Origin: an uncultured Pseudomonadota bacterium
Lineage (GTDB): Bacteria; Pseudomonadota; Alphaproteobacteria; Rs-D84; CACZYB01
Direction: 5' to 3'
NCBI GenBank assembly: GCA_963541275.1
Contig: CAUTSC010000001.1
Coordinates: 329,879 to 393,878 of the forward strand
Length of the DNA stretch: 64,000 nucleotides
The position numbers and the translations under genes are program-made. The number at the start of each line of letters is the position of its first letter. The first letter of the stretch is position 1. A model generated the notes under the pieces. The model had not been told where the DNA came from and ran no database searches. It saw only the letters and a list, made by a program, of their open reading frames with translations. Below are positions 1,290-64,000 of this stretch, one piece after another.

Positions 1290-2390
1290 TTATGGTTTAT
1301 AGTTAGCAAAGATCTCTTTTAAAATATTGTTATATTTTTTTAAATCTGTGATAGTTATAAATTCATTGTCTGTATGCGCCAGTTTTTGATCCCCACATCC
1401 AAAAACAATTGTCTCTATTCCTAAATCCTGCATATAACCCGCCTCGGTTGAATAAGGAAGTGTTATAAAATCAGTTTTTACAATAGATTTTACAAAATTT
1501 GCAAACACTTTATTCTCATTATAAAAAGGAACAAGTTCTTCTTTCTCTTCTGTTATAATTGTAGAGCCAGGATATTTTTCTTGTAATTTTAAAGCTTCAT
1601 TTAAAATATGACTATTCATAGTTTCCAATATTTTTTTATCAAAAACTCTGGCTAGCCAATTTATAACAGCTTTGTCTGCTACAATATTTGCTTGCGTTCC
1701 ACCATTTATTTCACCAACACTTAATGTTGATTTATTTTCTTTTAAAATTTCAACTTCTTTTTCCAAAAAATTAACTAGATGTGATGCAATATATATCGCA
1801 TTTACGCCAAGTTCTGGAGCACTGGAATGAGCAGATTTTCCAGTGATAATAGTTTCAAACCTTTTACAACCTTTTGTTCCAACACATATATTAAAATTTG
1901 TAGGTTCACCAACAATACAAGCATTAGGTAAAATATTGTTGTTTTTGAAAAATTCTTGGATCATTGGAATCCCATTAGACAAAGTTTCTTCATCAAATGT
2001 GAAAACTAAAATCACAGGATAATTTAAAGTGTAAATTTCTGGCAGTAAATTTAAAACACAAGCTGAAAATGATTTCATATCAACTGTGCCTCGTCCATAA
2101 ACTTTATCATCTTTTATTGTTGCAGAAAAAGGGGGAGTGTTCCATTTTGTTTCATCTGCTTTTACAACATCCAAATGCCCAAACAAAACCAAACCATTAT
2201 TTATGTTTTCAAGTTTATATTTATTTGATATTGCAATTATATGGTTTTGAACCCCATCATAAACAAGCTTAAAAATAAATCCATTTTTTGCAAGTAAATC
2301 ACAAACATAATGACAACATTCTGTATGAGAAATTGTTTCTATATCTGTTTTAAAATTTATTAAATCACATAAAATATTTTTTGCAGTCAT
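1290..2390 (-). CDS. M20-family metallopeptidase (ArgE/DapE-like deacylase)
   Basis: The 366-aa protein carries HLDVV (metal-binding H), GRGTVDMKS, FDEE and a C-terminal AHTDNEF motif, which together are typical of acetylornithine deacetylase / succinyl-DAP desuccinylase. Confidence 0.7.
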   Translation of the reverse strand: MTAKNILCDLINFKTDIETISHTECCHYVCDLLAKNGFIFKLVYDGVQNHIIAISNKYKLENINNGLVLFGHLDVVKADETKWNTPPFSATIKDDKVYGRGTVDMKSFSACVLNLLPEIYTLNYPVILVFTFDEETLSNGIPMIQEFFKNNNILPNACIVGEPTNFNICVGTKGCKRFETIITGKSAHSSAPELGVNAIYIASHLVNFLEKEVEILKENKSTLSVGEINGGTQANIVADKAVINWLARVFDKKILETMNSHILNEALKLQEKYPGSTIITEEKEELVPFYNENKVFANFVKSIVKTDFITLPYSTEAGYMQDLGIETIVFGCGDQKLAHTDNEFITITDLKKYNNILKEIFANYKP

Positions 2391-2394
2391 AGTT

Positions 2395-3147
2395 TTATCC
2401 TTTTATTTTTTGTTTTTGATTTATTATAAATTTTGTCATATTTGTTATATGTGCTTTTTGTGGCAAATTCTTCATTTTTTGCTTCTTGTTTTTATGTGTA
2501 ATCATACTATACATATATCCAAAAGATTCAAGTTCATTGGTGTTTGCAAAATATAATTGCTTTTTTGCCTTTGGCTCTTTTGTATAAACAAAAGCATAAC
2601 TTTTTGCATGAAACACAGGATCAAAATATACATGACTTATGCCAAATCCCATTTGGTGAAAATTTGTATAACTTTTTGGATTATCACCATCTATATAAGA
2701 AATGAAATTTTCTATGCCAAATTTTTCTTTTACTTGTTGCATTATATGGTTAATCATATATTGAGTAATTTTATTATTTCTGTATTCTTTTTGAACCATT
2801 AAAGAACCAAGACATCCAAAATCTTTTTCATTAAGATATATATCTTTCACATTTACTTCAAAATCATGATTTTTTTTGAAACTTATTGTTCCAATTATTT
2901 GATCTTTATCAAATGCCCCAACAATAAAACCTTCATCCATATATTTTTTGAAATCTTCTTTTGAATGATCATTTATTAAAGTTTGATCTGGACCAAGTTC
3001 ATGTAAAACATTATTTTGAAGTTGATATAAACTGTCTATATCTTTTTCAGTTAATGTTTTTATTTTTATTTGTTTTGGTGAGGTAAGTTTTTCACCATTG
3101 TAATTTTTTATAAATAATTCTGTTGAATTAAAGTTTACTATTTTCAT
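2395..3147 (-). CDS. hypothetical protein, possibly GNAT-fold acyltransferase
   Basis: A 250-aa ORF with no strong motif. A central segment, GCLGSLMVQKEYRNNKITQYMINHIMQ, resembles a GNAT acetyl-CoA binding core. The assignment is weak. Confidence 0.3.
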   Translation of the reverse strand: MKIVNFNSTELFIKNYNGEKLTSPKQIKIKTLTEKDIDSLYQLQNNVLHELGPDQTLINDHSKEDFKKYMDEGFIVGAFDKDQIIGTISFKKNHDFEVNVKDIYLNEKDFGCLGSLMVQKEYRNNKITQYMINHIMQQVKEKFGIENFISYIDGDNPKSYTNFHQMGFGISHVYFDPVFHAKSYAFVYTKEPKAKKQLYFANTNELESFGYMYSMITHKNKKQKMKNLPQKAHITNMTKFIINQKQKIKG

Positions 3148-3407
3148 TTTTTTATCCTTCGTTTAATTGTTTTTTTATCTCTTACTTACAAACTTTACTA
3201 ACCAGAACCTAATCTGTTAGAGGCAAGCGAATTTTCTGTTGAGATAAAAAGAACAATTCACCGCCGGCTAAATTCGGCGGAAACTACGGATAACAAGAAT
3301 ATCAATACTAAAATCGTTCATAATAAACGAATCTATATGGAAAATAAAATTATGTCAAGCATTTTTTTACTGCGAGTACTTTCATACCCGCAATAACTTA
3401 ACAAGGT

Positions 3408-3917
3408 TTAATCTTTTTTAAAAATACCTTCAATTTTATTTATTTCTTTACAACTTCCTGTGGAAGAGGTGGTTTTTGTATTATTTATATTTATTGAGAT
3501 TGCATGTTTTTGTTCCAACACATTAAACACAACGTTGCAATCTTTTTGATTTAATCCATTAAAAGTTAATTTTATGGTATCTGGAACTGGAACATTGTTT
3601 CCCGTTGCCTTTATGCCCGGTTTAACACCAACTTTTACTTCTTGTCCATTCCAAGGACTTTTAAGGGAAATATCACCCATCTTTGTTTTAACTATGCCTG
3701 TGATATCTTGCTCTGTTGTAAAACTTCTTCCTAAATAATAATTATTTACTTTTTCAACCACATCGCCAACCAAAGTGTCTGTTTTTATTCTGTTTGTTTT
3801 TTGCACTGCTTCGGAATAAGTTTGTATGATACCAGTTCCAATAACAATTGTTATTCCAAGATAAAGCAACATTTCCATCATTGAACGACCAGAATCATTT
3901 TTATATTTTAATTTCAT
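3408..3917 (-). CDS. type IV pilin / pseudopilin-like protein (prepilin-type N-terminus)
   Basis: The N-terminus MKLKYKNDSG|RSMMEMLLYLGITIVIGTGII has Gly at -1 and Glu at +5 relative to the predicted cleavage site, followed by a hydrophobic helix. This is the prepilin peptidase signature. Two C-terminal Cys (CNVV...GSCKE) suggest a disulfide loop as in type IVa pilins. Confidence 0.6.
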   Translation of the reverse strand: MKLKYKNDSGRSMMEMLLYLGITIVIGTGIIQTYSEAVQKTNRIKTDTLVGDVVEKVNNYYLGRSFTTEQDITGIVKTKMGDISLKSPWNGQEVKVGVKPGIKATGNNVPVPDTIKLTFNGLNQKDCNVVFNVLEQKHAISININNTKTTSSTGSCKEINKIEGIFKKD

Positions 3918-7011: not shown

Positions 7012-7088
7012 GGGTGATTAGCTCAGTTGGCTAGAGCATCTCGTTTACACCGAGGAGGTCTGGGGTTCGAGTCCCTAATCACCCACCA
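7012..7088 (+). tRNA. tRNA-Val (anticodon TAC)
   Basis: GGGTGATTAGCTCAGTTGGCTAGAGCATCTCGTTTACACCGAGGAGGTCTGGGGTTCGAGTCCCTAATCACCCACCA folds into a cloverleaf, with anticodon loop TTTACAC and an encoded CCA. Confidence 0.9.
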
Positions 7089-7909: not shown

Positions 7910-7931
7910 TTTATTTTTTATACCTTTGCAT

Positions 7932-7967
7932 AAAACAAGGAATCTTAATAGTTCCTTGTTTTTTTAT
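7932..7967 (+). terminator. rho-independent terminator after rpsD
   Basis: A hairpin AAACAAGGAA-tcttaatag-TTCCTTGTTT followed by a T7 run. Confidence 0.6.
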
Positions 7968-8546
7968 GAAAAAATTTATTCCAAAAATTATTAATTTAGG
8001 ATTTTATAAAAGAGATCTTTTAAATATAGATTCATTCAAATATTTTTTTGTAAAAATATTCGCCAGAAACGTAGTATCTTAAATATATAATGAATAGGTG
8101 AAGTTTAATTTAAAAAATCATACAAATATTTTGTGATAACCAAAATATTTGCCAATTTTTGTTTATAAAAATTATATATAAATTTTTTTAGATAATTTTA
8201 TGAGTTTAAGAATTCTTGTTTAGTAAATAAATGGGGATATTTTTTTATATGTTATTTTAATATGTGTCATTGAAATATTTTATTTAAGCAACATATTTAA
8301 CAATTTTTGCTTGCAAAAATTATATAACAATACAGATTTTTTTCATTGTAAGATGTATTTTATTTAATCTATATGCATTCAAATATCATTATTGTAAAGA
8401 TATTTGCCAATTTTTACAAAGTAAAAATTATATAAATATAAATAAGTACATATATTTACTTTCCAATCATCCCTAGATATTTTTGCTCTTTCTATCTATA
8501 TACTCTCCCTTTTCTTCCACGTCTCAAAAAATCGCAGATTTCTGCC

Positions 8547-8626
8547 ATTTTGAAAATTTTTATAAAAAAATGTAAAAAATTTGCATTTTGTTCTTGACTT
8601 TTAAAAAATAATGATTATACTATAAT
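8547..8626 (+). repeat. about 80-nt intergenic repeat element, copy 1 (carries a consensus sigma70-like promoter)
   Basis: TTGAAAATTTTTATAAAAAAATGTAAAAAATTTGCATTTTGTTCTTGACTTTTAAAAAATAATGATTATACTATAAT. About 80 % identical to 19878..19957. Confidence 0.55.
8594..8621 (+). promoter_or_regulatory. candidate orphan sigma70 promoter (TTGACT-16 nt-TATACT)
   Basis: It has a perfect -35 TTGACT, a 16-nt spacer and a -10 TATACT within the repeat element. No ORF follows; a small hairpin, GGGTAaagtaTACCC, lies at about 8636-8650. Confidence 0.4.
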
Positions 8627-8715
8627 TAACCAAAGGGTAAAGTATACCCAAAATTTCCAGAGAATAGATTTTTTATTTGCTATGGTGCGGACGCAGCTCG
8701 TTGTTGCTATGTGAA

Positions 8716-8790
8716 TTTTATTAAATATTTCATCCCAATATTTTTCTAAAGAAAAATGTTGGCCGCAAACTTTGTTTGCAAAAAAAACTA
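8716..8790 (+). repeat. direct repeat copy A (ATTTCATCCCAATATTTTTCTAAAGAAAAATGTTGG...TTTGCAAAAA)
   Basis: It pairs with 8945..9020 (about 85 % identity). Confidence 0.5.
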
Positions 8791-8944
8791 GAGAATAGAA
8801 AAATTTTAAAAAAAAGTAAAAAAAATTACTTTCCCTCTTGAAATTTAAAAATCGGGTACATATATATAAAATACGGCAGGGGTGAAGTCTGCAAAAATCA
8901 ATGATAGGGATTTATTATTTCAAAAAATTACTAGTTTGTGTGAT

Positions 8945-9020
8945 ATGAATTTAAATATATCATTCCAATATTTTTCTAAAGAAAAATGTTGGCGAGTTTT
9001 TGCTTGCAAAAATTATACTT
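8945..9020 (+). repeat. direct repeat copy B (ATATCATTCCAATATTTTTCTAAAGAAAAATGTTGG...TTGCTTGCAAAAATT)
   Basis: It pairs with 8716..8790. Confidence 0.5.
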
Positions 9021-9069
9021 TAATTTTATCATGAATGTGGATAGAAGGGTCTGAAAGCCCTATTAAATG

Positions 9070-9190
9070 GTGTGCTGTAAAGCATAGTACAAAAAGGGTA
9101 TATTCCTACTGTAATGGTAGGAAGGTGTAGGAATATTCAAATACTATACACTATTTCCATTTAATATAGTTTTCAGCTTCCTATCGCTAA
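9070..9190 (+). promoter_or_regulatory. conserved leader / operator-like element, copy 1 (TAGGAA/TTCCTA repeat array) upstream of cassette 1
   Basis: ...TTCCTACTGTAATGGTAGGAAGGTGTAGGAATATTCAAATACTATACACTATTT....CTTCCTATC is near-identical to 61849..61952. It contains an inverted repeat TTCCTAC/GTAGGAA and four TAGGAA half-sites. Confidence 0.55.
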
Positions 9191-9221
9191 TGATTAGTGA
9201 TGAAAAACAAGGAGAGACTAT

Positions 9222-9707
9222 ATGAAAAAATCAAAAATTAAGTATGCGATTTTACTTGGGTTGTTATTGTATAAATCCAGTTCTTTTGCTGCAAGCGATG
9301 CAACAAAAAAGCTTATACATGAAACCCTTGCAAAATATGGAATAAGTTCCGGCGGGAAAGAAGTATGCGGTACGGGACGAGAGCCAGAATATAACAATCA
9401 AACGGGAGTGGTAAAATGTAAAAACAATGCTGATGGCGACAGCAATAACTGCTGGGATGCAAGTTCCAGATTATGTAAAGAATGTCCCGTCGGTACAATA
9501 GTTAGTTCAAAAGATCACATAACCTGCAGACAAATTGTATGTCCAGATGGATTTGAGCTGAAAGAAATTATAAACAATGAATGTCCAGATGGTTTTGAAA
9601 TCAAATGGTTTGATGAAACTTGTGATGCAGAAACCTACGGCTTTAATGAAGTTATGGCAACAAAAAATTACACCACACAATCAACAAATTGTAAAAACAT
9701 AAAATAA
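9222..9707 (+). CDS. Cys-rich secreted protein, cassette 1 gene A (conserved N-module ATKKLIHETLAKYGISSGGKEVCG plus variable CPxG[FYM]E[LI] repeats)
   Basis: It has a signal peptide, MKKSKIKYAILLGLLLYKSSSFA, and a GGAGAG RBS. The N-terminal 24 aa after the signal are almost identical to the 61966 ORF. The C-terminal half is Cys-rich with CPDGFEL/CPDGFEI repeats. Confidence 0.7.
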   Translation: MKKSKIKYAILLGLLLYKSSSFAASDATKKLIHETLAKYGISSGGKEVCGTGREPEYNNQTGVVKCKNNADGDSNNCWDASSRLCKECPVGTIVSSKDHITCRQIVCPDGFELKEIINNECPDGFEIKWFDETCDAETYGFNEVMATKNYTTQSTNCKNIK

Positions 9708-9718
9708 AGGAGGAGAAT

Positions 9719-10576
9719 ATGAAAAAACATAAAATAAGTAAATTAGCATTGTTAACAGGATTGTTAATGATAAACACAAACACAAAAGGTTTCTATCAAT
9801 GCGTTCCTAAACAGGATTGGTTTAAGAAACAATATTATATCTTGACATTAGAGGATAAATTTAGAGTTGCTAAAACACAGATAAATAATCATAATCTGTG
9901 GATATTAGTTGAAGAAAATAAAACAAGTGGGAGTTTAGGTATCGGGATATATAAAGTAATAGTTGCAGGTGGGTGTGGAGGTGGTGGTGGAAGTGCAGGG
10001 AAAGATTATGAGGAGTATAATGTGTATTATTATCGTAGTGGTGGTGCTGGAGCAGTAGGGGAAATATCAATGAAACTATTTTATATTGATAGGTTAATGT
10101 CATATGCTGCCTGTATAGGATTAAAGGGTAGAAATGGAAGTGTTGGAGCTGGGGATGGAGGAAGTGGTGGTGGAGGAGGTGCAGGGTCTGCATTTAAAAT
10201 TAATGATTTAGAAATAATGGTTTCTGGAGGAGGTGGTGGAGGAGGTGCTTCTTCTCCTCATGGGGGAGGTGGTGGCGGTGGTGGCGGATATGGATGTGAA
10301 ATAGGAGGAAGAGGAGGATGGGGAAATAATAGTTATGATCATGTAAGTGGAGGAAATATTGTTAGAGATAGATATTTAGGTGGTGCTAAAGGGATAGATG
10401 GAGGAGAAGATTATGGAAACAATGGTGGAAGTGGTGGAAAAGGTGGTAGACCATGTGCAAATGGGGGTGTTGGAGGTACAGATTTGGGAAGTGGAGTAGG
10501 TGGTAATAGTTGTGCTACAAAAGGAAATGGCAATACTGGTGATGGTTATGTTAAAATTTACAAATATATTGGATAA
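9719..10576 (+). CDS. Gly-rich secreted protein, cassette 1 gene B
   Basis: It has a signal peptide and the conserved FYQCVPK..W start. Long GGGGGGG/GGSGG tracts give a local GC spike from GGN codons. The conserved C-terminus is GDGYVKIYKYIG. It is a paralog of 62523..63080. The RBS is AAGGAGGAG. Confidence 0.7.
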   Translation: MKKHKISKLALLTGLLMINTNTKGFYQCVPKQDWFKKQYYILTLEDKFRVAKTQINNHNLWILVEENKTSGSLGIGIYKVIVAGGCGGGGGSAGKDYEEYNVYYYRSGGAGAVGEISMKLFYIDRLMSYAACIGLKGRNGSVGAGDGGSGGGGGAGSAFKINDLEIMVSGGGGGGGASSPHGGGGGGGGGYGCEIGGRGGWGNNSYDHVSGGNIVRDRYLGGAKGIDGGEDYGNNGGSGGKGGRPCANGGVGGTDLGSGVGGNSCATKGNGNTGDGYVKIYKYIG

Positions 10577-10579
10577 TGT

Positions 10580-10608
10580 GTAAGATAGTATTTACTATCT
10601 TACTTTTC
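10580..10608 (+). terminator. hairpin terminator after cassette 1 (overlaps the glgB stop)
   Basis: GTAAGATAGTA-tt-TACTATCTTAC followed by TTTTC. Confidence 0.5.
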
Positions 10609-12793
10609 ATTCCATATTCATAAGTATAACACAGCTAAGGGGTGGTAGGGTTATATTGATTGAAAATTGTTTATTGTGCCATGGGGTGTTTTCTGTTTCT
10701 ATTGTCATTCGGTTTTTAACTCCACTGCCACCATACATAATGTCATCGCTGTTAAAAATTTCTTTTAAAATTGTATCTTTTGTGATACCAACTCTGTAAT
10801 CATATCTTACAACCGGAGTCATATTTACAACTATTATAACAAAATTATTTTTGCTGCTGTCATATCTTATATAACTGAAAATTTGATTATTTATATCATC
10901 TCCACAAATCCATTCAAAAAGATCTTTATTAGAGTCACCCTGATATAAACATTTATTGGTTGTATAAAGTAAATTTAAATCTTTTACCAGGTTTTGGATT
11001 CCTTTGTGTTTTGGATCATTTAATAAATGCCAATCAAGACTTTGTTCTTTATTCCATTCGTTATATTGACCAAACTCCCCCCCCATAAATAATAATTTTT
11101 TTCCAGGGTAAGACCACATGAAAGATAAAAATAACCTTAAATTTGCAAATTTTTGCCATTCATCACCTGGCATTTTTGAAAGCAAACTTTGTTTTCCATA
11201 AACAACTTCATCATGAGAAATTGGAAGCACAAAATTTTCACTGAACGCATAATGAAATGTAAATCCAATTAAATGTTGATGATATTTTCTGTAAACTGGA
11301 TCTTTTGTAAAATAGGAAAGTATGTCATGCATCCAACCCATATTCCATTTATAACCAAAACCCAGTCCTCCACAATTAACTGGTTTTGAAACATCTTTCC
11401 AACTGGTGGATTCTTCGGCATATGATGCAAAATGTGGACATTTTTCATAAAGTAAAATGTTGGTGTTTTTTAAAAAATCTATTGCTTCTAAATTATCGTG
11501 CCCACCATATTTATTTGGCGTCCATTCACCTGGACTTTTTGAATAGTCAAGATATAACATAGATGCAACCGCATCAAAGCGAAGTCCGTCAACTTTATAT
11601 TCTGTTAACCAAAAAAGGGCAGAGGAAAATAAAAAATTAACAACTTCTTTTTTAGAGTAGTCATAAATTTTTGTACCCCAATCTTTATGTTCACCTTTTT
11701 TAGTATCCGCATATTCATAAAGTGGTGTTCCATCAAAATTAGCAAGTCCGTGCGGATCCTTTGGAAAATGTGCCGACACCCAATCAAGTATAACGGCAAT
11801 ACCAGCCTTATGACATTCATTTATAAAATATTTAAAATCTGTTGGTGTACCATATCTGGATGTTGGGGCAAACATGCCAATTGTTTGATAACCCCATGAA
11901 TCATCAAATGGATATTCCATAACAGGCATTATTTCAATATGTGTGAAACCCATATATTTAACATAAGGGATAAGTTCGTTTGCAAGATCGCGATAAGTAA
12001 GCCAAAAATAACCATCCTTTTTTCGCCAAGAACCAAGATGAACTTCGTAAATTGAGATAGGTTTTGAAATGGAGTTAATAGTGTCTTTTTTTAGATTCCA
12101 TTCTGGTGTTTCATCCCAATTAAAATTTTTTATATCCCAAACAATAGAAGCATTTTTTGGTCTCATTTCTTGAAAAAAACCAAAAGGATCAGTTTTAAAT
12201 GGAAGTAGTTTTTTATTTTTATCCAAGAGTTCAAATTTGTAAAGCTCACCATCACCAATGTCAGGAATAAATATATCCCACAAACCACTTGTTAAATGTT
12301 TTCTCATAACATTAACACGCCCATCCCAATTATTAAAATTGCCAATCACACTTACCCTGTGTGCGTTTGGTGCCCAAAGTGCGAATGAAACACCCTTTAT
12401 TCCATTAAGGGTTATTGTTTGCGCACCAAGTTTGTTAAATAATTCAAAATGACGACCTTCACAAAATAAATAATCATCTATATCGCCAATTATGGATGGA
12501 AAATTATAAACATCATTTTTAATTGTTTCATTATTATTATAATCAATGATTTTTAATTTATAATTAGTGATTGCTTCTGTAAATTGTAGTTCAAATAATC
12601 CAAACTCGTGAATTTTTTGCATTTGAAATTCAGTGTTGTTTTTGATTATAAAAATTGATTTTGCAGTTGGAATAAAAACTCTTATCACACAAGCTGTATC
12701 AAAATTATGAAGTCCCAAAACAGAAAATGGATCAGTATGAAAACCATTTACAATAGCATCAATTTCTTGATTGTTTAAAACTTGTGCTGACAA
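10607..12793 (-). CDS. glgB: 1,4-alpha-glucan (glycogen) branching enzyme
   Basis: A 728-aa protein with GH13 catalytic motifs: GLRFDAV, HFPKD, YAESHD-like, and the GFGYKWNMGWMHD block typical of GlgB. Confidence 0.95.
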   Translation of the reverse strand: MSAQVLNNQEIDAIVNGFHTDPFSVLGLHNFDTACVIRVFIPTAKSIFIIKNNTEFQMQKIHEFGLFELQFTEAITNYKLKIIDYNNNETIKNDVYNFPSIIGDIDDYLFCEGRHFELFNKLGAQTITLNGIKGVSFALWAPNAHRVSVIGNFNNWDGRVNVMRKHLTSGLWDIFIPDIGDGELYKFELLDKNKKLLPFKTDPFGFFQEMRPKNASIVWDIKNFNWDETPEWNLKKDTINSISKPISIYEVHLGSWRKKDGYFWLTYRDLANELIPYVKYMGFTHIEIMPVMEYPFDDSWGYQTIGMFAPTSRYGTPTDFKYFINECHKAGIAVILDWVSAHFPKDPHGLANFDGTPLYEYADTKKGEHKDWGTKIYDYSKKEVVNFLFSSALFWLTEYKVDGLRFDAVASMLYLDYSKSPGEWTPNKYGGHDNLEAIDFLKNTNILLYEKCPHFASYAEESTSWKDVSKPVNCGGLGFGYKWNMGWMHDILSYFTKDPVYRKYHQHLIGFTFHYAFSENFVLPISHDEVVYGKQSLLSKMPGDEWQKFANLRLFLSFMWSYPGKKLLFMGGEFGQYNEWNKEQSLDWHLLNDPKHKGIQNLVKDLNLLYTTNKCLYQGDSNKDLFEWICGDDINNQIFSYIRYDSSKNNFVIIVVNMTPVVRYDYRVGITKDTILKEIFNSDDIMYGGSGVKNRMTIETENTPWHNKQFSINITLPPLSCVILMNME

Positions 12794-38936: not shown

Positions 38937-39230
38937 AGTGGGGATAGTTGAAGAACTGCTGTATATTATAGGTATATATAGAGGAAAGTCTGGACACCTC
39001 AAGAGAAAGATAACGGATAACGTCCGTCTGTAGTAATACGAGGATTAGAGCCACAGAGACGAGTCTGGAAACAGAGTGAAACGGGCAATCTCTATCTGGT
39101 GCAAGACTAAATAGAAGGGTGTTGAGTGCTCTTGTGAACCCTTGGGTGAGTCGCATGAAATATGTAGTAATATATATTCAAGATAAATAGTTCTTTTTAA
39201 CAGAATCCAGCTTACAGACTATCCCTTGTA
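38937..39230 (+). ncRNA. rnpB: RNase P RNA (reduced type A)
   Basis: P4 5' strand is GAGGAAAGTCTGGAC and P4 3' strand is ACAGAATCCAGCTTA, with a compensatory CTGG/CCAG change versus the consensus CCGG/CCGG. P1 pairs GGGATAGT (38941) with ACTATCCC (39218). Internal ...ACAGAGTGAAACGGGCAAT... and GGTGCAAGACTAAATAGAAGGGTG blocks match conserved regions. It lies in a gap with no ORF. Confidence 0.7.
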
Positions 39231-42765: not shown

Positions 42766-42841
42766 GGGTGATTAGCTCAGTCGGTAGAGCAACTGACTTT
42801 TAATCAGTGGGTCACAGGTTCGAATCCTGTATCACCCACCA
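42766..42841 (+). tRNA. tRNA-Lys (anticodon TTT)
   Basis: GGGTGATTAGCTCAGTCGGTAGAGCAACTGACTTTTAATCAGTGGGTCACAGGTTCGAATCCTGTATCACCCACCA folds into a cloverleaf, with anticodon loop CTTTTAA and an encoded CCA. Confidence 0.9.
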
Positions 42842-59512: not shown

Positions 59513-59589
59513 TGGTCGGGGAGACAAGATTTGAACTTGCGGCACCTAGTTCCCAAAACTAGTACTCTACCAGACTGAGCTACTCCCCG
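59513..59589 (-). tRNA. tRNA-Pro (anticodon TGG)
   Basis: The reverse complement CGGGGAGTAGCTCAGTCTGGTAGAGTACTAGTTTTGGGAACTAGGTGCCGCAAGTTCAAATCTTGTCTCCCCGACCA folds into a cloverleaf with anticodon loop TTTGGGA. Confidence 0.9.
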
Positions 59590-59654: not shown

Positions 59655-61763
59655 TTGATTTTAATAATATTTTATTTTAATTTAAACAAAATGTTAAGAT
59701 TGTCAAGATACATCACTTATACTTCAAAACAAATTGAAAAAGAATATTTTCAATATGTCTTTTTTATTCCTGTTTTAATCTCTATTGGTATTTTAATTTA
59801 CTTTAATCTTAATTTTGAACCCAATATTCACAATACATTTTTGATTTTGTTATTAAGCATTTTTTCTCTGTTCATTGATTTGCCAAAAAGAAAAAAATAT
59901 TTTATTTTTAAAGTTTTAAAATTTGCACTTTTATTTATTATTTTGGGATTTTTCATTATTACAATCAAAGCCAATTTTTTAAATACATTTTTACTAAATA
60001 AAAAAGCAAATGATAAAATTATTACTGGAAGGGTTATAAGGATAGAACAAAATCAAAAATATAATAAGATAGTTGTTGATAATGTAAAAATTTTAAATAT
60101 TGGGATTTATTCTGTTTTAAATAAAATCAAAAAATTGCAGATAAATTTTAATACTTCACATAAACTGCCAGAAATAGGTAAAGATATTATTGTAAAAGCA
60201 GATATTAGACCCTTTTTATATCCTATCACAAATAAAAGTTTTAATTTCCGTCGTTATTATTATTTTAATGAAATATCAGGCAAAGCTTTTCTAAAATCAA
60301 ATTGGCAATATAATTTACAACAAAAAGATAACAATATTTTTGATAAGATTATTTTCAAAATTTACAAACTACGTCAAAAGATAAATGAAAAAATTTCATC
60401 AATAATAAAAAACGATAATAAAGAAATTATTATGTCAATTATGACAGGTAAAAGATATTTTGAAAATAAAATAACAGAACAATATAAAGCTGCAGGTGTC
60501 AGTCATATTTTATCTATTTCTGGGCTTCATTTTGGAATTATAATGGGATTTATCTTTTTTATTATAAGATATTTTTTGCTACTTTTCTCATATATTCAAA
60601 ATAAATATGATATAAAAAAATTAACAGCAATTATCACATTTTTAATAAGCATAATTTATTTAATTATAAGTGGAGCACGTATTCCAACAATTCGTGCATT
60701 TATAATGTTTTCTTTTATGATGCTTGCAATTTTAACAGATAAAAATCCAGTATCAATAAGGATAGTGGTGTTAAGTATGTTAATAATACTTTTGTTATAT
60801 CCAGAATCTTTAATAACCGCAGGTTTTCAATTATCATTCATTGCAACAATAACAATATTAAAATTTTTTGAAATAAAAGATCTATGGATGATAAATATAA
60901 ATAATCATACGGGATTTCATAAATACCTATTTAAAAGTATCAACTTTGTAAATGGAATTATTTTATCATCAATTGCGGTGTCTATTTTTACAATGCCAAT
61001 AATAATTTATCATTTTAATACAATACAATTATATGGATTTTTAGGAAATTTACTCATTGTGCCAATTTTCACATTTTTTGTAATGCCAACAATTTTACTA
61101 ACTTTTATTTTTATGCCATTTAATTTTTATAAAATATTTTTATATCTACTTGATTTTGAAATAAATATTATAAATTTTTTAACAGAAATTATTTCAAAAT
61201 TTCCATTTACTAATATCAAATTTTATGGCATTTCAAATATATCACTTGTTTTAATATATCTTGGGATTGCTATAAGGTTGATTTTTAAAACTAACCTAAA
61301 AAATATGGGATATGTTTTTATTTTTATTGGAATGAGTTGCAATTTTTTTAATAAAACCCCAGATATAATAATAAACAAATTTGGAAATATTTTTGCTATT
61401 AAACAAGATAATAAAATACACATTTTAAATTTAAGTAATTATAAAATAAAAGAATATGAAATTGCTGAATATAAAAAAGTTTTTAAAAGTAATATAGTTG
61501 TAAATACAGATAAAAAAAACTGGATAATAAATAACACAAAAATTGCATTTATAAATGATAACAAAGATTATGAAATTGCATGCAAAGAAAATACTTTAAT
61601 TTTTATAACTAACCCAAAATATACGATGAATTTTATTTGTAATAAAAGAGTGTTTGATAATATTTTTTCTCTTACTACTAAAGGCGCAGAATTTTACATA
61701 AACAATAATAAATATAAAGTAAAACCAATTATTGATATAGACAATAAAAGTATTTGGGATTAA
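59655..61763 (+). CDS. comEC: ComEC/Rec2-family DNA internalisation channel protein (no C-terminal MBL domain)
   Basis: A DUF4131-like N-domain and a competence domain with AAGVSHILSISGLHFGII, on a polytopic membrane protein. The start may be the internal Met at 59691. Confidence 0.8.
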   Translation: MILIIFYFNLNKMLRLSRYITYTSKQIEKEYFQYVFFIPVLISIGILIYFNLNFEPNIHNTFLILLLSIFSLFIDLPKRKKYFIFKVLKFALLFIILGFFIITIKANFLNTFLLNKKANDKIITGRVIRIEQNQKYNKIVVDNVKILNIGIYSVLNKIKKLQINFNTSHKLPEIGKDIIVKADIRPFLYPITNKSFNFRRYYYFNEISGKAFLKSNWQYNLQQKDNNIFDKIIFKIYKLRQKINEKISSIIKNDNKEIIMSIMTGKRYFENKITEQYKAAGVSHILSISGLHFGIIMGFIFFIIRYFLLLFSYIQNKYDIKKLTAIITFLISIIYLIISGARIPTIRAFIMFSFMMLAILTDKNPVSIRIVVLSMLIILLLYPESLITAGFQLSFIATITILKFFEIKDLWMININNHTGFHKYLFKSINFVNGIILSSIAVSIFTMPIIIYHFNTIQLYGFLGNLLIVPIFTFFVMPTILLTFIFMPFNFYKIFLYLLDFEINIINFLTEIISKFPFTNIKFYGISNISLVLIYLGIAIRLIFKTNLKNMGYVFIFIGMSCNFFNKTPDIIINKFGNIFAIKQDNKIHILNLSNYKIKEYEIAEYKKVFKSNIVVNTDKKNWIINNTKIAFINDNKDYEIACKENTLIFITNPKYTMNFICNKRVFDNIFSLTTKGAEFYINNNKYKVKPIIDIDNKSIWD

Positions 61764-61848
61764 TATAAAAATATTTTTCTTGTATAAAAATCTTTTTAAT
61801 ATTATCATAAAATTTAAAGAAAGGGTGTGACAACCCATGTACTAATAA

Positions 61849-61952
61849 AGTGCTGAATAGCACAAAGTGTTTTCCTACTGCAAGGTAGGAAGGTATAGGA
61901 ATATCCAATACTATACACTATTTTAGTACATAGTTGTCAACTTCCTATCAAA
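61849..61952 (+). promoter_or_regulatory. conserved leader / operator-like element, copy 2 (TAGGAA/TTCCTA repeat array) upstream of cassette 2
   Basis: GTGCTGAATAGCAC hairpin, then TTCCTACTGCAAGGTAGGAAGGTATAGGAATATCCAATACTATACACTATTT...CTTCCTATC. Confidence 0.55.
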
Positions 61953-61965
61953 AAAGGAGGATTAG

Positions 61966-62502
61966 ATGAAAAACTATATAAAAAATCATGGCAAAATTTT
62001 GCTGTTTGCTACGGGGATTTTATTTTCGCACAAAGCATTTTCAGCAAGTGAGGCAACTAAGAAGTTGATACACGAAACCCTTGCAAAATATGGAATAAGT
62101 TCCGGTGGTAAGGAAGTTTGCGGGGGTGATGAAGAACCAATTTGTAATGAACCAGGTTGCAAAGTTAAATGCAACAGGGTAGATGCAACAACTGGATTAA
62201 AGGCAAACAATTTCTGGTCGCCAAGTGATAGGTTATGTAAATCTTGTCCGGTTGGAACAATACTCAACAAAACCTCATTCCAAAGTTGTAATCAAGTTGT
62301 GTGTCCAGAAGGGACAACTGGGATAAAAGTGAGTGGTGGAAATTGTCCCACTGGGATGGATTTATTTGCTCCCAGCAAAGGAATCTGCCCCGAGGGATAT
62401 GAACTTATCAAAATTACAAATGGAAAATGCCCGGATGGGATGGAGCTTATTGATTTAAGAAACAACTGCCCATCAGGATATGAAATGTTTAAACAATCAT
62501 AA
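61966..62502 (+). CDS. Cys-rich secreted protein, cassette 2 gene A
   Basis: A signal peptide, then SEATKKLIHETLAKYGISSGGKEVCG (identical to cassette 1 apart from the first residue, which is D in cassette 1 and E here). The repeats are CPEGYEL, CPDGMEL, CPSGYEM and CPTGMDL. Confidence 0.7.
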   Translation: MKNYIKNHGKILLFATGILFSHKAFSASEATKKLIHETLAKYGISSGGKEVCGGDEEPICNEPGCKVKCNRVDATTGLKANNFWSPSDRLCKSCPVGTILNKTSFQSCNQVVCPEGTTGIKVSGGNCPTGMDLFAPSKGICPEGYELIKITNGKCPDGMELIDLRNNCPSGYEMFKQS

Positions 62503-62522
62503 TAAAAGGAAAGGAGAAAACT

Positions 62523-63080
62523 ATGATGAAAAAACAAATAAGTAAAATAAGTTTATTAAGTGCAATGCTTGTTGCAACTATGGTAAACGCCCAAGAATTC
62601 TACACCTGCGTTCCAAAAAGGAATTGGTGGAGTGATCTTATAAAAGATGGAGTAGAAAAAGGAGTTACAGAAGGTAAGAAAGAAATAGAAGAAAATAAAT
62701 GGGAAACTATTATAGATCTTACTACGGACAGTAATCCTGTTGAATTAAAACAGGCATTGTTGCCAGGCAAATACAGAGTGACAGTTGCTGTTGCAGGAGT
62801 AGGTATGGACGGAGAGAAGAAAGTAAGAATATTTACCCTTGATAAGAAAGAAGAATTTAAAGCATGTATAGAAGTAAGTGGAGGAAATGGGGGAGATAAA
62901 TATAGTATTGGTAAAGCAACATATATTGGTGGTGGCGGTGGGGGTGGTGGGGGAAGTTATTTTGAAATAGGTGAAGTTAAACTTTTATTAAAAGGTGGTG
63001 ACGGAGAAGATGCCACTCAAGAAAAAGCAGGTAAAGGTGCCAGTCCAGATGGATATATTAAAATAGAAAAATGGAAATAG
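62523..63080 (+). CDS. Gly-rich secreted protein, cassette 2 gene B
   Basis: A signal peptide, EFYTCVPK..W, a GGGGGGGGG tract, and a C-terminal PDGYIKIEKWK (cf. GDGYVKIYKYIG in cassette 1). Confidence 0.7.
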   Translation: MMKKQISKISLLSAMLVATMVNAQEFYTCVPKRNWWSDLIKDGVEKGVTEGKKEIEENKWETIIDLTTDSNPVELKQALLPGKYRVTVAVAGVGMDGEKKVRIFTLDKKEEFKACIEVSGGNGGDKYSIGKATYIGGGGGGGGGSYFEIGEVKLLLKGGDGEDATQEKAGKGASPDGYIKIEKWK

Positions 63081-63103
63081 ACTAAATAACTTCTATACAC
63101 AGT

Positions 63104-63131
63104 CTCTCCTGTTTTTTGCAGGAGTTTTTGT
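63104..63131 (+). terminator. rho-independent terminator after cassette 2
   Basis: TCTCCTGttttttGCAGGAG followed by TTTTTGTTT. Confidence 0.6.
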
Positions 63132-63138
63132 TTATAAT

Positions 63139-64000
63139 TTATTTAATTAAATCCAATTGTGTGTTGTATAGATCTATGTATTGTGAGGCGGATTTGTTCC
63201 ATGAAAAATCTTGGTTCATTGCTTGTTTTATTATGTTATTCCATATTTTTTTATCATTTTGATATAAATCAAGCGTACGAATTGTCGTATATATAAGATC
63301 ATGTACAGAATAATTTTCAAACAAGAAGCCCGTTGCATCATGTGAAACTATGGTATGAGTAAAATCTGCATTTATAATTGAATCGGCAAGTCCTCCAGTT
63401 TTGCGAGCAATAGGAATTGTACCATATTTCATTGCAAAAATTTGTGTCAGTCCGCAAGGTTCATAAAGTGCTGGATTTATTAAAATATCCGATCCTGCAA
63501 TTAAAAGATGTGATAAATCTTCATCAAAATCTGTGATTACAATTTGATTTGGATGATTGTTTTGCAACATTTTTAACTTTGGAACGTATCCACCTTGATC
63601 TGTTCCCATAATTATAATTTGTATGTTATGCATTACAAGAGCAGGTATCGCCTCTATTAAAATATCTATCCCTTTTTGTGTGGCAAGACGGCTTAATACA
63701 CAAAACACAGGAATATTTGGATTTTGTATTATGTTAAATCTTTTTTGCAATTCCAATTTATTTTGTTGTTTGCCAGTTTTAAAAGTTTTTTTATCATAAT
63801 TTGTAAGAATAGTTTTATCAGTTTCTGGATTCCAAACACTATAATCAACTCCATTTAAAATCCCAGTTAGCTGATTTTTTCTTTGTATCATATCATGATG
63901 AAGTCCATAGCCATAAAATTCAGTTTGTATTTCATTTGCATAATTTGGACTTACTGTTGTGATTTTATCTGCAAAATGAATCCCAGCTTTTAAAAAAGAA
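63139..64000 (-). CDS. glgA: glycogen synthase (C-terminal part; gene continues past the window end)
   Basis: The minus-strand frame reads continuously from 64000: ...FLKAGIHFADKITTVSPNYANEIQTEFYGYGLHHDMIQRKNQLTGILNGVDYSVWNPETD...YEPCGLTQIFAMKYGTIPIARKTGGLADSI, which are GT5 GlgA motifs. The track start at 63891 is an internal Met. Confidence 0.85.
   Translation of the reverse strand, partial: SFLKAGIHFADKITTVSPNYANEIQTEFYGYGLHHDMIQRKNQLTGILNGVDYSVWNPETDKTILTNYDKKTFKTGKQQNKLELQKRFNIIQNPNIPVFCVLSRLATQKGIDILIEAIPALVMHNIQIIIMGTDQGGYVPKLKMLQNNHPNQIVITDFDEDLSHLLIAGSDILINPALYEPCGLTQIFAMKYGTIPIARKTGGLADSIINADFTHTIVSHDATGFLFENYSVHDLIYTTIRTLDLYQNDKKIWNNIIKQAMNQDFSWNKSASQYIDLYNTQLDLIK

Follow-up and report, generated by a model that had tools for sequence, protein, structure and literature searches.

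A dispersed family of two-gene operons with a structured leader RNA and candidate variable binding proteins in an uncultured gut alphaproteobacterium

Several families of variable surface proteins are multigene families with conserved 5' regions, including pilE/pilS in Neisseria, vlsE in Borrelia, and vsp/vlp/vsa in Mycoplasma. The protein BclA combines a variable glycine-rich region with a TNF-like head. A glycine-rich domain (GRD) also serves as the ligand-binding region of ALK, and as the receptor-recognising tip of phage tail fibres. Fibre tips with a TNF-like domain and a GRD include cyanophage Pam3 gp24 (PDB 7ypx) and mycobacteriophage Bxb1 gp33, the 'tail wing brush' (9d93), and Salmonella phage S16 gp38 is a further such tip (as cited in PMC9608196). 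Pam3 gp24 consists of an N-terminal helical docking domain, a TNF-like domain, and a GRD with a conserved glycine stem and hypervariable receptor-binding tips, and phage fibres of this kind are encoded beside a helper gene (PMC9608196).

Here, we analysed a stretch of 64,000 nucleotides (the window) from an uncultured low-GC alphaproteobacterium of the herbivore gut, related to ruminant-gut MAGs. Among its relatives is the Rs-D84/Enterousia lineage, which has reduced genomes and depends on partners. The best match of its RpsD protein among the GTDB representatives was 87%, and the species itself is apparently absent there. We focused on cassette 2, located between comEC and glgA. We propose, with about an even chance of being right, that this cassette is an autonomous member of a dispersed family of two-gene operons, which encodes a variable extracellular binding pair, is diversified by recombination, and is controlled by its leader.

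Cassette 2 is a self-contained two-gene operon at 61780-63134 of the window, and comprises a promoter, a leader of ~157 nt, genes A2 and B2, and an intrinsic terminator (Table 1). The original prediction had drawn this cassette from 61849 to 63131. The unit itself was recognised correctly, but position 61849 falls inside the leader, and the real start is the promoter. Both open reading frames were found at the positions first given for them, and the flanking genes and the cassette's own terminator were likewise confirmed. A glycosyltransferase is located on the far side of comEC, away from cassette 2. In 7/7 cassettes examined, the promoter motif TTG[TC]A[TA]-N16-18-TA[TC][CT]AT precedes the start of gene A by 157-198 nt. 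The cassette 2 promoter is weak by consensus, with 8/12 matches, and stays under the cut-off of a generic scanner. None of the cassettes examined relies on shared signals, as each carries a promoter, a structured leader of 157-198 nt, ribosome-binding sites, and a terminator.

Table 1. Predicted features of the two cassettes and their neighbours (window coordinates)
Feature	Position	Strand	Remarks
Cassette 1 (paralogous, type-1 subfamily)	9004-10603	+	convergent with glgB; between rpsD and glgB, abutting glgB
Cassette 1 promoter	9004-9032		
Cassette 1 leader	9033-9221		
Gene A1	9222-9707	+	161 aa, 10 Cys
Gene B1	9719-10576	+	285 aa
Cassette 1 intrinsic terminator	10580-10603		fold z -4.8
ComEC/Rec2, upstream neighbour of cassette 2	59655-61763	+	
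Predicted promoter, cassette 2 (TTGTAT-N17-TATCAT)	61780-61808	+	sigma-70-type; assigned by conservation
Predicted structured 5' leader RNA, cassette 2	61809-61965	+	folding and covariation
P1a	61828-61834/61933-61939	+	
P1b	61838-61845/61923-61930	+	
P2 hairpin	61850-61863	+	
P3 hairpin	61872-61891	+	
P4	61893-61898/61911-61916	+	
Invariant anti-SD CUUCCUAUC	61941-61949	+	
SD AGGAGG	61955-61960	+	
Gene A2	61966-62502	+	178 aa, 12 Cys
Gene B2	62523-63080	+	185 aa
Intrinsic terminator, cassette 2	63106-63134	+	CTCCTG-loop-CAGGAG (63106-63124) and T-run; fold z -4.6
glgA 3' part, downstream neighbour of cassette 2	63139-63891	-	

The two cassettes in the window were described from the start as divergent copies of one architecture, and we found the same order of promoter, leader, A, B, and terminator in both. 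B2 is shorter than B1 by exactly 100 aa, and the variable content differs, in the number of cysteines in gene A and in the glycine content of gene B (27.7% in B1 and 15.1% in B2). A1 and A2 share 43% identity (E 5e-37), and B1 and B2 share 29% (E 9e-13), indicating paralogy far above chance. Approximately 100 nt of the 5' untranslated sequence are near-identical between the copies, and exactly two occurrences of a 20-nt leader core were counted in the window (0.01 expected).

We computed dN/dS segment by segment on gene A, copy 1 against copy 2. Conservation is lowest in the signal peptide (dN 0.87, dS 0.86), residues 28-53 are almost invariant (dN 0.03, dS 1.12), and the synonymous sites of the variable region are saturated (pS 0.76, dN 0.61). 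The low dN next to the high dS in residues 28-53 indicates that this segment is held by purifying selection. Recent gene conversion was considered as the cause of its conservation, and was ruled out by the dS of ~1.1 there. The similarity thus reaches beyond the signal peptide, as residues 28-53, the cysteine scaffold, and the core of gene B all align. From these sequence distances, cassettes 1 and 2 are old paralogs, not a recent duplicate.

The leader shared by the cassettes is a previously undescribed multi-helix RNA supported by covariation. The cassette 2 leader folds with a z-score of -5.4, and independent MFE folds gave the same architecture in 5/7 homologous leaders. In helix P1a, 48/49 cells are paired, with compensatory changes at 6/7 positions. 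In P1b, 57/63 cells are paired, with compensatory changes at 7/9 positions, compared to 14-32/63 in slid registers. P1a and P1b together have 105/112 cells paired, and the slid and non-cognate controls are much lower. The cognate P1 duplex was the best one in 6/7 rows (mean -15.0 vs -7.1 kcal/mol), and covariation was also seen in P4. This covariation rests on 7 sequences (6 distinct), with helix strands registered manually. Because MAFFT placed the variable helices of the leaders in the wrong register, the helix statistics were derived from anchored strands (Python).

The ribosome-binding site is paired with CUUCCU in the MFE structure of 6/7 leaders, and 0.7-3.8 kcal/mol (ddG) is needed to free it. 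This invariant element is thus predicted to mask the Shine-Dalgarno (SD) sequence. We searched the whole window, including both leaders, against Rfam 15 (4227 families) at gathering thresholds, and found only RNase P and tRNAs. A sensitive E-value scan of the copy-1 leader gave chance-level matches only. The leader core is also unusually conserved in primary sequence and contains four TAGGAA/TTCCTA boxes, which might partly serve a regulator as DNA targets. We regard the leader as a candidate for a new Rfam family, and the masking of the SD by CUUCCU is a testable mechanism.

The protein A2 has a Sec-type signal peptide (residues ~1-26), followed by a near-invariant helix/GGK segment (residues 28-53) and a cysteine-rich body. 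The body carries CPxG(Y/M)EL repeats with 12 cysteines. A2 belongs to the type-2 subfamily, which ends in CPSGYEMFKQS. After the signal peptide, the conserved N-terminal segment of the A proteins reads ...LIHETLAKYGIS(A/S)GGKxxC. We judged the signal peptides of A and B by eye from their n-, h-, and c-regions, with cleavage at AFS/AS and VNA/QE. At the Pfam gathering score, A1 and A2 have no match to PF00020 or PF07699. Relatives of gene A and the fused modules reach PF07699 only below threshold, for example with 20.2 and 18.8 bits (cut-off 23.1). A fold search with a low-confidence model of gene A returned TNFR-like matches that were not significant, and no other match was significant.

In B2, a signal peptide (residues ~1-23) is followed by a conserved QEFYTCVPK..WW motif with a helix, and by a C-terminal TNF-like/glycine-rich domain (residues ~60-185). 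The conserved N-terminal segment after the signal peptide is QEFYTCVPKKSWW. The C-terminal domain is predicted to be a TNF-like beta-sandwich with glycine-rich stretches, and the model contains the TNF-like beta-sandwich (jelly-roll) core at the fold level. Residues 120-145 of the B2 model form non-regular structure. The glycine content of B2 is found in one G8 run, GGNGGD, and KGGDGED, and many more such stretches are found in paralogs; B2 is the shortest glycine-bearing full-length member of the gene B family. The N-terminus of B is conserved and the remainder is highly variable. The glycine-rich insert ranges from none to ~200 residues among the paralogs, and variants without glycine retain the PGKYK strand and the C-terminal strand. 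Some variants have entirely different C-terminal domains. No significant match was found for A1, A2, B1, B2, or their paralogs, including the longer B paralogs, in Pfam, NCBIfam, PHROGs, and PDB sequence profiles. Since Pfam, NCBIfam, and PHROGs miss the family, its genes are currently annotated as hypothetical.

The glycine-rich B and the cysteine-rich A might instead build a surface layer, a hair-like nap, or an extracellular matrix, in which case the variation would be a response to immune or phage pressure and not a matter of binding specificity. BclA, with its variable glycine-rich region and TNF-like head, is the protein to compare here. However, the B model is structurally closest to receptor-binding modules, namely the GRD of ALK and phage fibre tips, and not to BclA. 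The glycine runs are of the GGGGxGG type and lack the collagen-like GXY periodicity, and the proteins are small (~160-360 aa), without obvious anchoring or self-assembly domains. We consider this structural reading unlikely.

The original prediction counted two copies. Both are real, yet they are only 2 members of a family with at least 8 per genome. Gene A fell into 35 clusters and gene B into 38. At least 7 A and at least 9 B paralogs appear to be located on one contig of 401,359 bp, which also carries exact A2 (P0040) and B2 (P0055). The paralogous cassettes are always located between housekeeping genes, at sites after comEC, rpmA, and an ABC/FtsX pair, and near trmD and carD. A functional link between A and B is suggested by the recurrence of the gene pair in a distant relative (L089), and by P0068 and the B-like protein of L089, in which direct fusion joins cysteine-rich repeats and the B domain in one protein. 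No relatives of the family were found in GTDB species representatives, JGI metagenomes, and IMG/VR.

The variability proposed for this locus was seen in a near-identical strain. In L008, comEC is 97-98% identical at the DNA level, and the cassette downstream differs: it is mosaic, and both its gene A body and its gene B are of type 1. Identity to the window falls to 50-73% in the leader, is 100% in the signal peptide of A, and then drops to 35-55%. Accordingly, gene A dS between L008 and the window rises from 0.06 in the signal peptide to 1.1 in the constant region, with a jump near codon 27-30. The L008 leader is also chimeric, and its P1 helix is broken. Two further B genes, L005 B and P0090, are chimeras of a type-2 N-terminus and a type-1 body. 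Mosaic exchange between family members is thus seen between strains.

The suggested modular acquisition, taken as the work of a mobile element, found no support in the neighbourhood, as no mobility genes flank cassette 2 (comEC, the glycosyltransferase beyond it, and glgA). The flanks of cassette 1, between rpsD and glgB, likewise lack mobility genes. A comEC synteny check found a cassette in 4/4 comEC-downstream loci from relatives, and never an empty site. Synteny downstream of rpsD is not conserved in the closest GTDB relatives, and is thus uninformative on the insertion of cassette 1.

A swap of the copies for expression had also been suggested. In programmed antigenic or phase variation, only one cassette would be active at any time, and a dedicated mechanism would move copies into an expression site or turn them on and off. 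Such a program would fit the many copies with their constant 5' regions and divergent bodies, the exchange for a mosaic cassette at the comEC site of a near-identical strain, and the short in-frame GGN repeats of B. However, each copy examined carries its own promoter, leader, SD, and terminator (promoter and leader in 7/7), and no promoterless or truncated donor copies are present in the window. A tblastn search of the window with all family proteins found no silent fragments. Invertase-type flanking inverted repeats and an adjacent recombinase gene are absent, and there is no convincing promoter flanked by inverted repeats. The only inverted repeat near the promoter is a 10-nt AT-rich one that spans the comEC 3' end, and its inversion would disrupt comEC. 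There are no frameshift-prone homopolymer tracts, the GGN repeats being short and in frame. Moreover, the saturated synonymous sites between the window copies indicate that there was no recent intragenomic conversion. Programmed switching is therefore quite unlikely, and the evidence points to recombination as the driver of cassette diversity. At the population level, the source of this diversity is homologous recombination between family members.

The polymorphism could also reflect arms races with competitors, with B as a glycine-rich antimicrobial (microcin- or closticin-like) and A as an accessory or targeting protein. Glycine-rich bacteriocins exist, and conserved N-termini with polymorphic C-termini, including the entirely different C-terminal domains of some B variants, resemble polymorphic toxins. 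Against a toxin pair, there is no immunity-like gene, dedicated exporter, or double-glycine leader, and both proteins carry Sec-type signals. The fold of B is a binding module and no known toxin fold, and there was no PADLOC- or toxin-type Pfam signal, as judged from Pfam matches alone. We regard this reading as very unlikely. Least credible of all is a domesticated or decaying prophage or tailocin remnant that left behind a tail-fibre tip gene and its assembly partner, since the fold match of B to tail-fibre and 'brush' proteins and the helper gene beside phage fibres (PMC9608196) are outweighed by the Sec signal peptides on A and B, which virion proteins lack, by the isolated operons with their own conserved promoter and leader among housekeeping genes, by the absence of other phage genes nearby, of relatives in 2.9 million IMG/VR contigs, and of any PHROG match, and by the strong purifying selection on the constant region. 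The prophage-remnant, toxin, and invertible-promoter ideas were each weighed, and then down-weighted.

The cassette most likely encodes a variable pair of extracellular, surface-binding proteins. A and B would be exported and act together as an adhesin-like pair, in which the CPxGYEL repeats of A would make up a disulfide-rich stalk or partner. The conserved N-termini of both proteins may form a constant docking or assembly part, and specificity would lie in their variable C-termini. In the population, recombination between homologous family members runs through the conserved promoter, leader, and N-terminal segments, and replaces or mosaicises the cassette at a fixed chromosomal site. Folding and covariation further suggest that the leader controls expression, with the invariant CUUCCU sequestering the SD unless the upstream four-helix junction refolds.

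A bolder extension of this binding-pair reading, which we think improbable as a whole, is a self-contained diversification system for a phage-fibre/ALK-like module. In it, the A-B operons, at least 8 per genome and each autonomous, would trade segments via the conserved blocks of promoter, leader, and N-terminus. A new class of riboregulator, a four-helix junction with an invariant anti-SD, would govern them all and respond to one shared signal. With its TNFR-like cysteine-rich repeats, A would join the TNF-like/GRD protein B in a prokaryotic heterocomplex of the ligand-receptor kind, by which a bacterium from a partner-dependent, genome-reduced gut lineage would attach to varying host or partner cells.

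The cassettes would give the glycine-rich binding fold of ALK and phage fibres a new context, that of Sec-exported bacterial proteins in a recombining multigene family. They offer a concrete candidate mechanism by which an uncultured alphaproteobacterium of the gut could vary its surface or the specificity of its attachment. No paradigm is overturned, since examples of both variable adhesin families and GRD-fold proteins were already known.

As in the Mycoplasma, Neisseria, and Borrelia families, there are many dispersed paralogs, a conserved upstream region and N-terminus, a variable remainder, and mosaic exchange. Unlike them, the cassettes have no single expression site, silent copies, invertible or slippage switch, or lipoprotein signal, and each copy looks independently expressible, in contrast to pilE/pilS-type systems. 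The resemblance of gene A to TNFR and ephrin-receptor-like (GCC2_GCC3) cysteine-rich repeats stays under the curated thresholds in all scores, and the CPxGYEL repeat and conserved N-terminal helix are absent from those families.

The resemblance of B to GRD proteins appears at the fold level only. Compared to phage fibre tips, B lacks sequence-level similarity, has a Sec signal peptide, and is encoded on the chromosome in isolated operons without virion genes. Its partner A is encoded upstream, is cysteine-rich, and is itself predicted to be secreted, whereas gp25 of Pam3 is a beta-sandwich/helical chaperone. The likeness to the GRD of ALK/LTK (PDB 7lir, 7lrz, 7ls0, 7nx3) is likewise one of fold. 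There it is part of a receptor tyrosine kinase, whereas B is bacterial, far smaller, and without a kinase or membrane anchor, and B2 has a single long glycine run against the many polyglycine-II helices of ALK.

The leader differs from known SD-sequestering riboregulators in that none of the 4227 Rfam families matched it. It resembles SD-masking riboregulators, such as riboswitches and RNA thermometers, in its long structured 5' UTR and covarying multi-helix junction. Its invariant pyrimidine element is predicted to pair with the SD at a small release cost, as in SD-sequestering riboswitches.

We found that cassette 2, the A2-B2 unit between comEC and glgA, goes beyond a duplicated gene pair and belongs to a lineage-restricted, dispersed and recombining family of autonomous operons. 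The two-gene cassettes were present as originally predicted, and we confirmed the A2/B2 and A1/B1 open reading frames, the comEC, glgA and glgB flanks, and a terminator (hairpin and T-run) at the 3' end of each cassette. Alignment of A1 with A2 gave 43% identity (E 5e-37) and of B1 with B2 29% identity (E 9e-13), with 10 cysteines in A1 and 12 in A2, and glycine contents of 27.7% in B1 and 15.1% in B2. About 100 nt of untranslated upstream DNA is more conserved between the copies than the genes are, and the window holds exactly two copies of a 20-nt core of this sequence, compared with 0.01 expected.

Coordinates of the two cassettes, their flanking genes and the RNA genes in the window
Feature	Position	Strand	Length	Remark
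tRNA gene	7012-7085			ordinary
A1	9222..9707		161 aa	
B1	9719..10576		285 aa	
glgB	10607-12793			adjoins cassette 1
RNase P RNA (class A)	38940-39230			ordinary
tRNA gene	42766-42838			ordinary
tRNA gene	59516-59589			ordinary
ComEC/Rec2	59655..61763			flank of cassette 2
A2	61966..62502	+	178 aa	
B2	62523..63080	+	185 aa	
glgA 3' part	63139..63891	-		flank of cassette 2

The GC content of both cassettes (9222-10576 and 61966-63080) is 37.3%, compared with 28.2% for the window; GC is raised, too, in the leaders (34%) and in the A genes, which are poor in Gly (35-39%). The higher GC may stem from the amino-acid and structural make-up of these sequences, or they may have a different origin. Both cassettes stand tail-to-tail with glycogen genes about 50 kb apart, which is probably a coincidence, because cassettes on other contigs adjoin unrelated genes.

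The prediction of a divergent paralog agrees with dN/dS along gene A. Between the copies, dS was 0.86 and dN 0.87 in the signal peptide, and dS was 1.12 and dN 0.03 in the constant region (residues 28-53); in the variable region dS was saturated (pS 0.76) and dN was 0.61. Copies 1 and 2 are old paralogs, and the constant segment is maintained by purifying selection on the protein. Recent gene conversion as the cause of its conservation was rejected because of the dS of 1.12. Since dS is saturated, the comparison of the two copies gave no usable signal of positive selection in gene A.

Variability at the same locus was borne out by L008, a metagenome locus from a strain whose comEC is 97-98% identical to the window's in DNA (95% in protein) and which bears a different, mosaic cassette. 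Downstream of comEC, identity falls to 50-73% in the leader, returns to 100% in the gene A signal peptide (dS 0.06), and is 35-55% from about 62120 onward, with a constant-region dS of 1.1. In L008, gene A joins the A2 signal peptide to a type-1 (A1-like) body and is followed by a type-1 gene B. Two further loci, L001 and L090, encode ComEC proteins 76-79% identical to the window's and carry a cassette of different content directly after comEC (type-1-like A, 360-aa B); the cassette of L001 is followed by an outer-membrane-protein-like gene, not glgA. A type-2 (A2-like) N-terminus with a type-1 body was found in the gene B chimeras of L005 and P0090. Because of the L008 mosaic, the differing L001/L090 cassettes and these other chimeras, we conclude that the location downstream of comEC is conserved as a place for a cassette, and that what it holds is swapped by recombination. 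The suggestion that the copies have distinct specificities also fits. The proposed modular acquisition was unsupported as stated: no mobility gene adjoins the cassettes, and no empty comEC-glgA junction was found among the relatives' loci recovered. In L090, comEC (1467-3537) lies in two ORFs (413 and 256 aa), either a frameshift/pseudogene or an assembly error.

The idea that the copies are swapped for expression was likewise not supported. All seven cassettes examined carry the promoter motif TTG[TC]A[TA]-N17-TA[TC][CT]AT, which precedes the gene A start by 157-198 nt, and tblastn with all 92 family proteins gave no match in the window beyond the two cassettes, revealing no silent fragments. 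Tandem repeats in the cassettes are short in-frame GGN runs, and neither a recombinase nor a mobility gene lies next to them. The only inverted repeat near the cassette 2 promoter is a perfect 10-nt one, TGATAATATT / AATATTATCA (61655-61664 / 61798-61807), whose second arm overlaps the -10 box. We judged it to be chance, given its AT-richness and its position across the comEC stop codon; its inversion would disrupt comEC.

The family comprises 35 database clusters for gene A and 38 for gene B, nearly all from ENA metagenome assemblies with a few NCBI MAG contigs, and no cluster carries a name. A2 and B2 are identical to database proteins P0040 and P0055, both assigned to a contig of 401,359 bp, a length also recorded for the contig of 6 further type-2 gene A proteins and 8 further gene B proteins; we infer that all of these lie on one contig. 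A-B cassettes follow comEC in L001/L002, L008 and L090, lie downstream of rplU-rpmA with two ORFs in between in L003, follow an ABC/FtsX pair in L004, and lie near trmD in L005/L006 and near carD in L007. Two peptide-pattern scans of JGI metagenomes, IMG/VR and the GTDB representatives, which apparently do not include the window's own species, found no relative. Searching 1.84 billion representative proteins with a profile gave only 54 matches at E up to 1e-3, the more distant being secreted Cys-rich proteins of 130-170 aa in which an L..L.KYCVPK motif is combined with CPxGY repeats.

For the host, the AddB in the window is of the alphaproteobacterial type and the window GC is 28%. Uncultured alphaproteobacterial MAGs, mostly from ruminant or other animal guts, encode RpsD proteins 79-87% identical to the window's; identity to that of Candidatus Enterousia is about 61-64%. 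Enterousia belongs to the order Rs-D84, whose members are described as genome-reduced, partner-dependent gut bacteria (PMC12306168).

The cassettes share a previously undescribed structured leader, which had no match in Rfam. Folds of the two window leaders beat shuffled controls (z -5.4 and -4.8), and independent MFE folds gave the same architecture in 5 of 7 homologous leaders. A long-range helix, P1 (P1a and P1b), encloses a variable hairpin P2 (deleted in L090), a conserved hairpin P3 (UUCCUAC/GUAGGAA) and a hairpin P4 with covariation by RNAalifold. Counted on anchored strands, 48/49 cells were paired in P1a and 57/63 in P1b, with compensatory double changes at 6/7 and 7/9 positions, respectively; sliding the P1b register left only 14-32/63 paired. 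P1b differs in sequence in every leader and its strands stay complementary (AAUGG/CCAUU, ACUAA/UUAGU, UUGAG/CUCAA, ACAGG/CCUGU, UUCG/CGAA). The cognate P1 duplex was the most stable in 6/7 rows (mean -15.0 vs -7.1 kcal/mol). The exception was the L008 leader (1359-1525), whose 5' strand pairs with the 3' strands of other leaders at -13 to -14 kcal/mol and with its own at -2.9, as would be expected of a recombinant. This suggests that the L008 leader is chimeric and that recent recombination broke its P1 helix.

P1 is followed directly on its 3' side by an invariant CUUCCUAU(C) element, which pairs with the Shine-Dalgarno (SD) sequence in 6/7 MFE structures and has GGUAGGAAG or a 5' AAGGG as alternative predicted partners. 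The leader is thereby predicted to have the anatomy of an SD-masking riboregulator, with a predicted cost of freeing the SD of only 0.7-3.8 kcal/mol. Some of the conserved TAGGAA/TTCCTA boxes could instead be protein-binding DNA.

Between rpsD and cassette 1, a region of 1.1 kb without genes (7910-9030) holds several tandem promoter-like modules. We identified a 68-nt repeat family at 8109, 8257 and 8950 with the terminal sequence TTGCTTGCAAAAATTATA, and a 43-nt pair at 8721 and 8951 (95% identical, 230 nt apart) holding a CCAATATTTTTC...GAAAAATGTTGG hairpin. The cassettes in L001, L003 and L004 are likewise preceded by a related module (CTCTTGAAA ... AAGGGGTGAGGT ... hairpin), which cassette 2 lacks. 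The cassette 1 modules may serve as sites for a regulator, encode a small RNA or be scars of recombination.

In an alignment of 37 sequences, gene A showed a variable signal peptide, a near-invariant segment ...LIHETLAKYGIS(A/S)GGKxxC, a conserved Cys scaffold NN(C/Y)W...RLCKxCP, and CPxG(Y/F/M)EL repeats. Type 1 ends in ATNNYTTQSTNCKNIK; type 2 has additional repeats and ends in CPSGYEMFKQS. A and B are always adjacent (spacing 12-21 nt), and gene B carries its own SD. In L089, the only distant locus read, a B-like gene directly follows the A-like gene, so the A-B pairing predates the narrow family. In the L089 B-like protein, a signal peptide and AQTFYQC are accompanied by Cys repeats resembling those of ephrin receptors and by a short Gly stretch. 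Both P0068 and L089 1371-2249 fuse ephrin-receptor/TNFR-like Cys-rich repeats N-terminally to a B-type domain. The N-terminal KYCVPK of distant A relatives resembles the FYTCVPK of B, and this (F/K)Y-x-C-V-P-K likeness hints at a common N-terminal module. From the adjacency, the recurrence in L089, the Cys-repeat fusions and the motif resemblance, we infer that A would stay in the mature assembly, as its stalk or as a partner, and would not act as a transient chaperone. Upstream of the L089 A-like gene (840-940), two tandem copies of a ~45-nt unit, each holding a GGGTGAAGG...CTTCACCC hairpin, sit inside a ~500-nt intergenic leader unlike the window leader.

All gene B members have a signal peptide followed by (A)QEFYTCVPKKSWW (GFYQCVPKQDW in type 1) and are highly variable beyond this motif. 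Most have 185-324 aa, 14-32% Gly and the C-terminal end PDGY(V/I)xIE(K/R)xE; B2, without the central insert, is the shortest of the Gly-bearing full-length members. In some members any Gly-rich region is missing, yet the PGKYK strand is kept and the C-terminal strand is similar. Paralogs without a Gly-rich region (P0078, P0079, P0083, P0085, P0086, P0088, P0089, P0091, P0092) retain the conserved signal peptide and a QEFYTCVPKK motif and terminate in ...LEIYKKNDD or ...ELYKYE, and several are assigned to the 401-kb contig. In these paralogs the beta-sandwich may persist although the Gly insert is missing.

AF2 with the family alignment modelled B2 residues 60-185 confidently (mean pLDDT 92-97 in most 10-residue blocks; 74-88 at residues 91-100 and 121-140). 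Among viral models, Foldseek mainly matched phage and giant-virus entries named 'glycine-rich domain-containing protein'. Taken together, the operon is predicted to export by Sec a Cys-rich protein and a protein with a phage-fibre/ALK glycine-rich binding fold. Fold analogy and the conservation pattern best support a putative role as a variable extracellular binding (adhesin-like) pair. Although B carries a Sec signal that phage Pam3 gp24 does not, and no sequence similarity between them is detectable, its parts stand in the same order as in gp24, which has an N-terminal helical docking domain, a TNF-like domain and a glycine-rich domain with a conserved Gly stem (GGGGxGG) and hypervariable receptor-binding tips, and whose gene adjoins a helper gene (PMC9608196).
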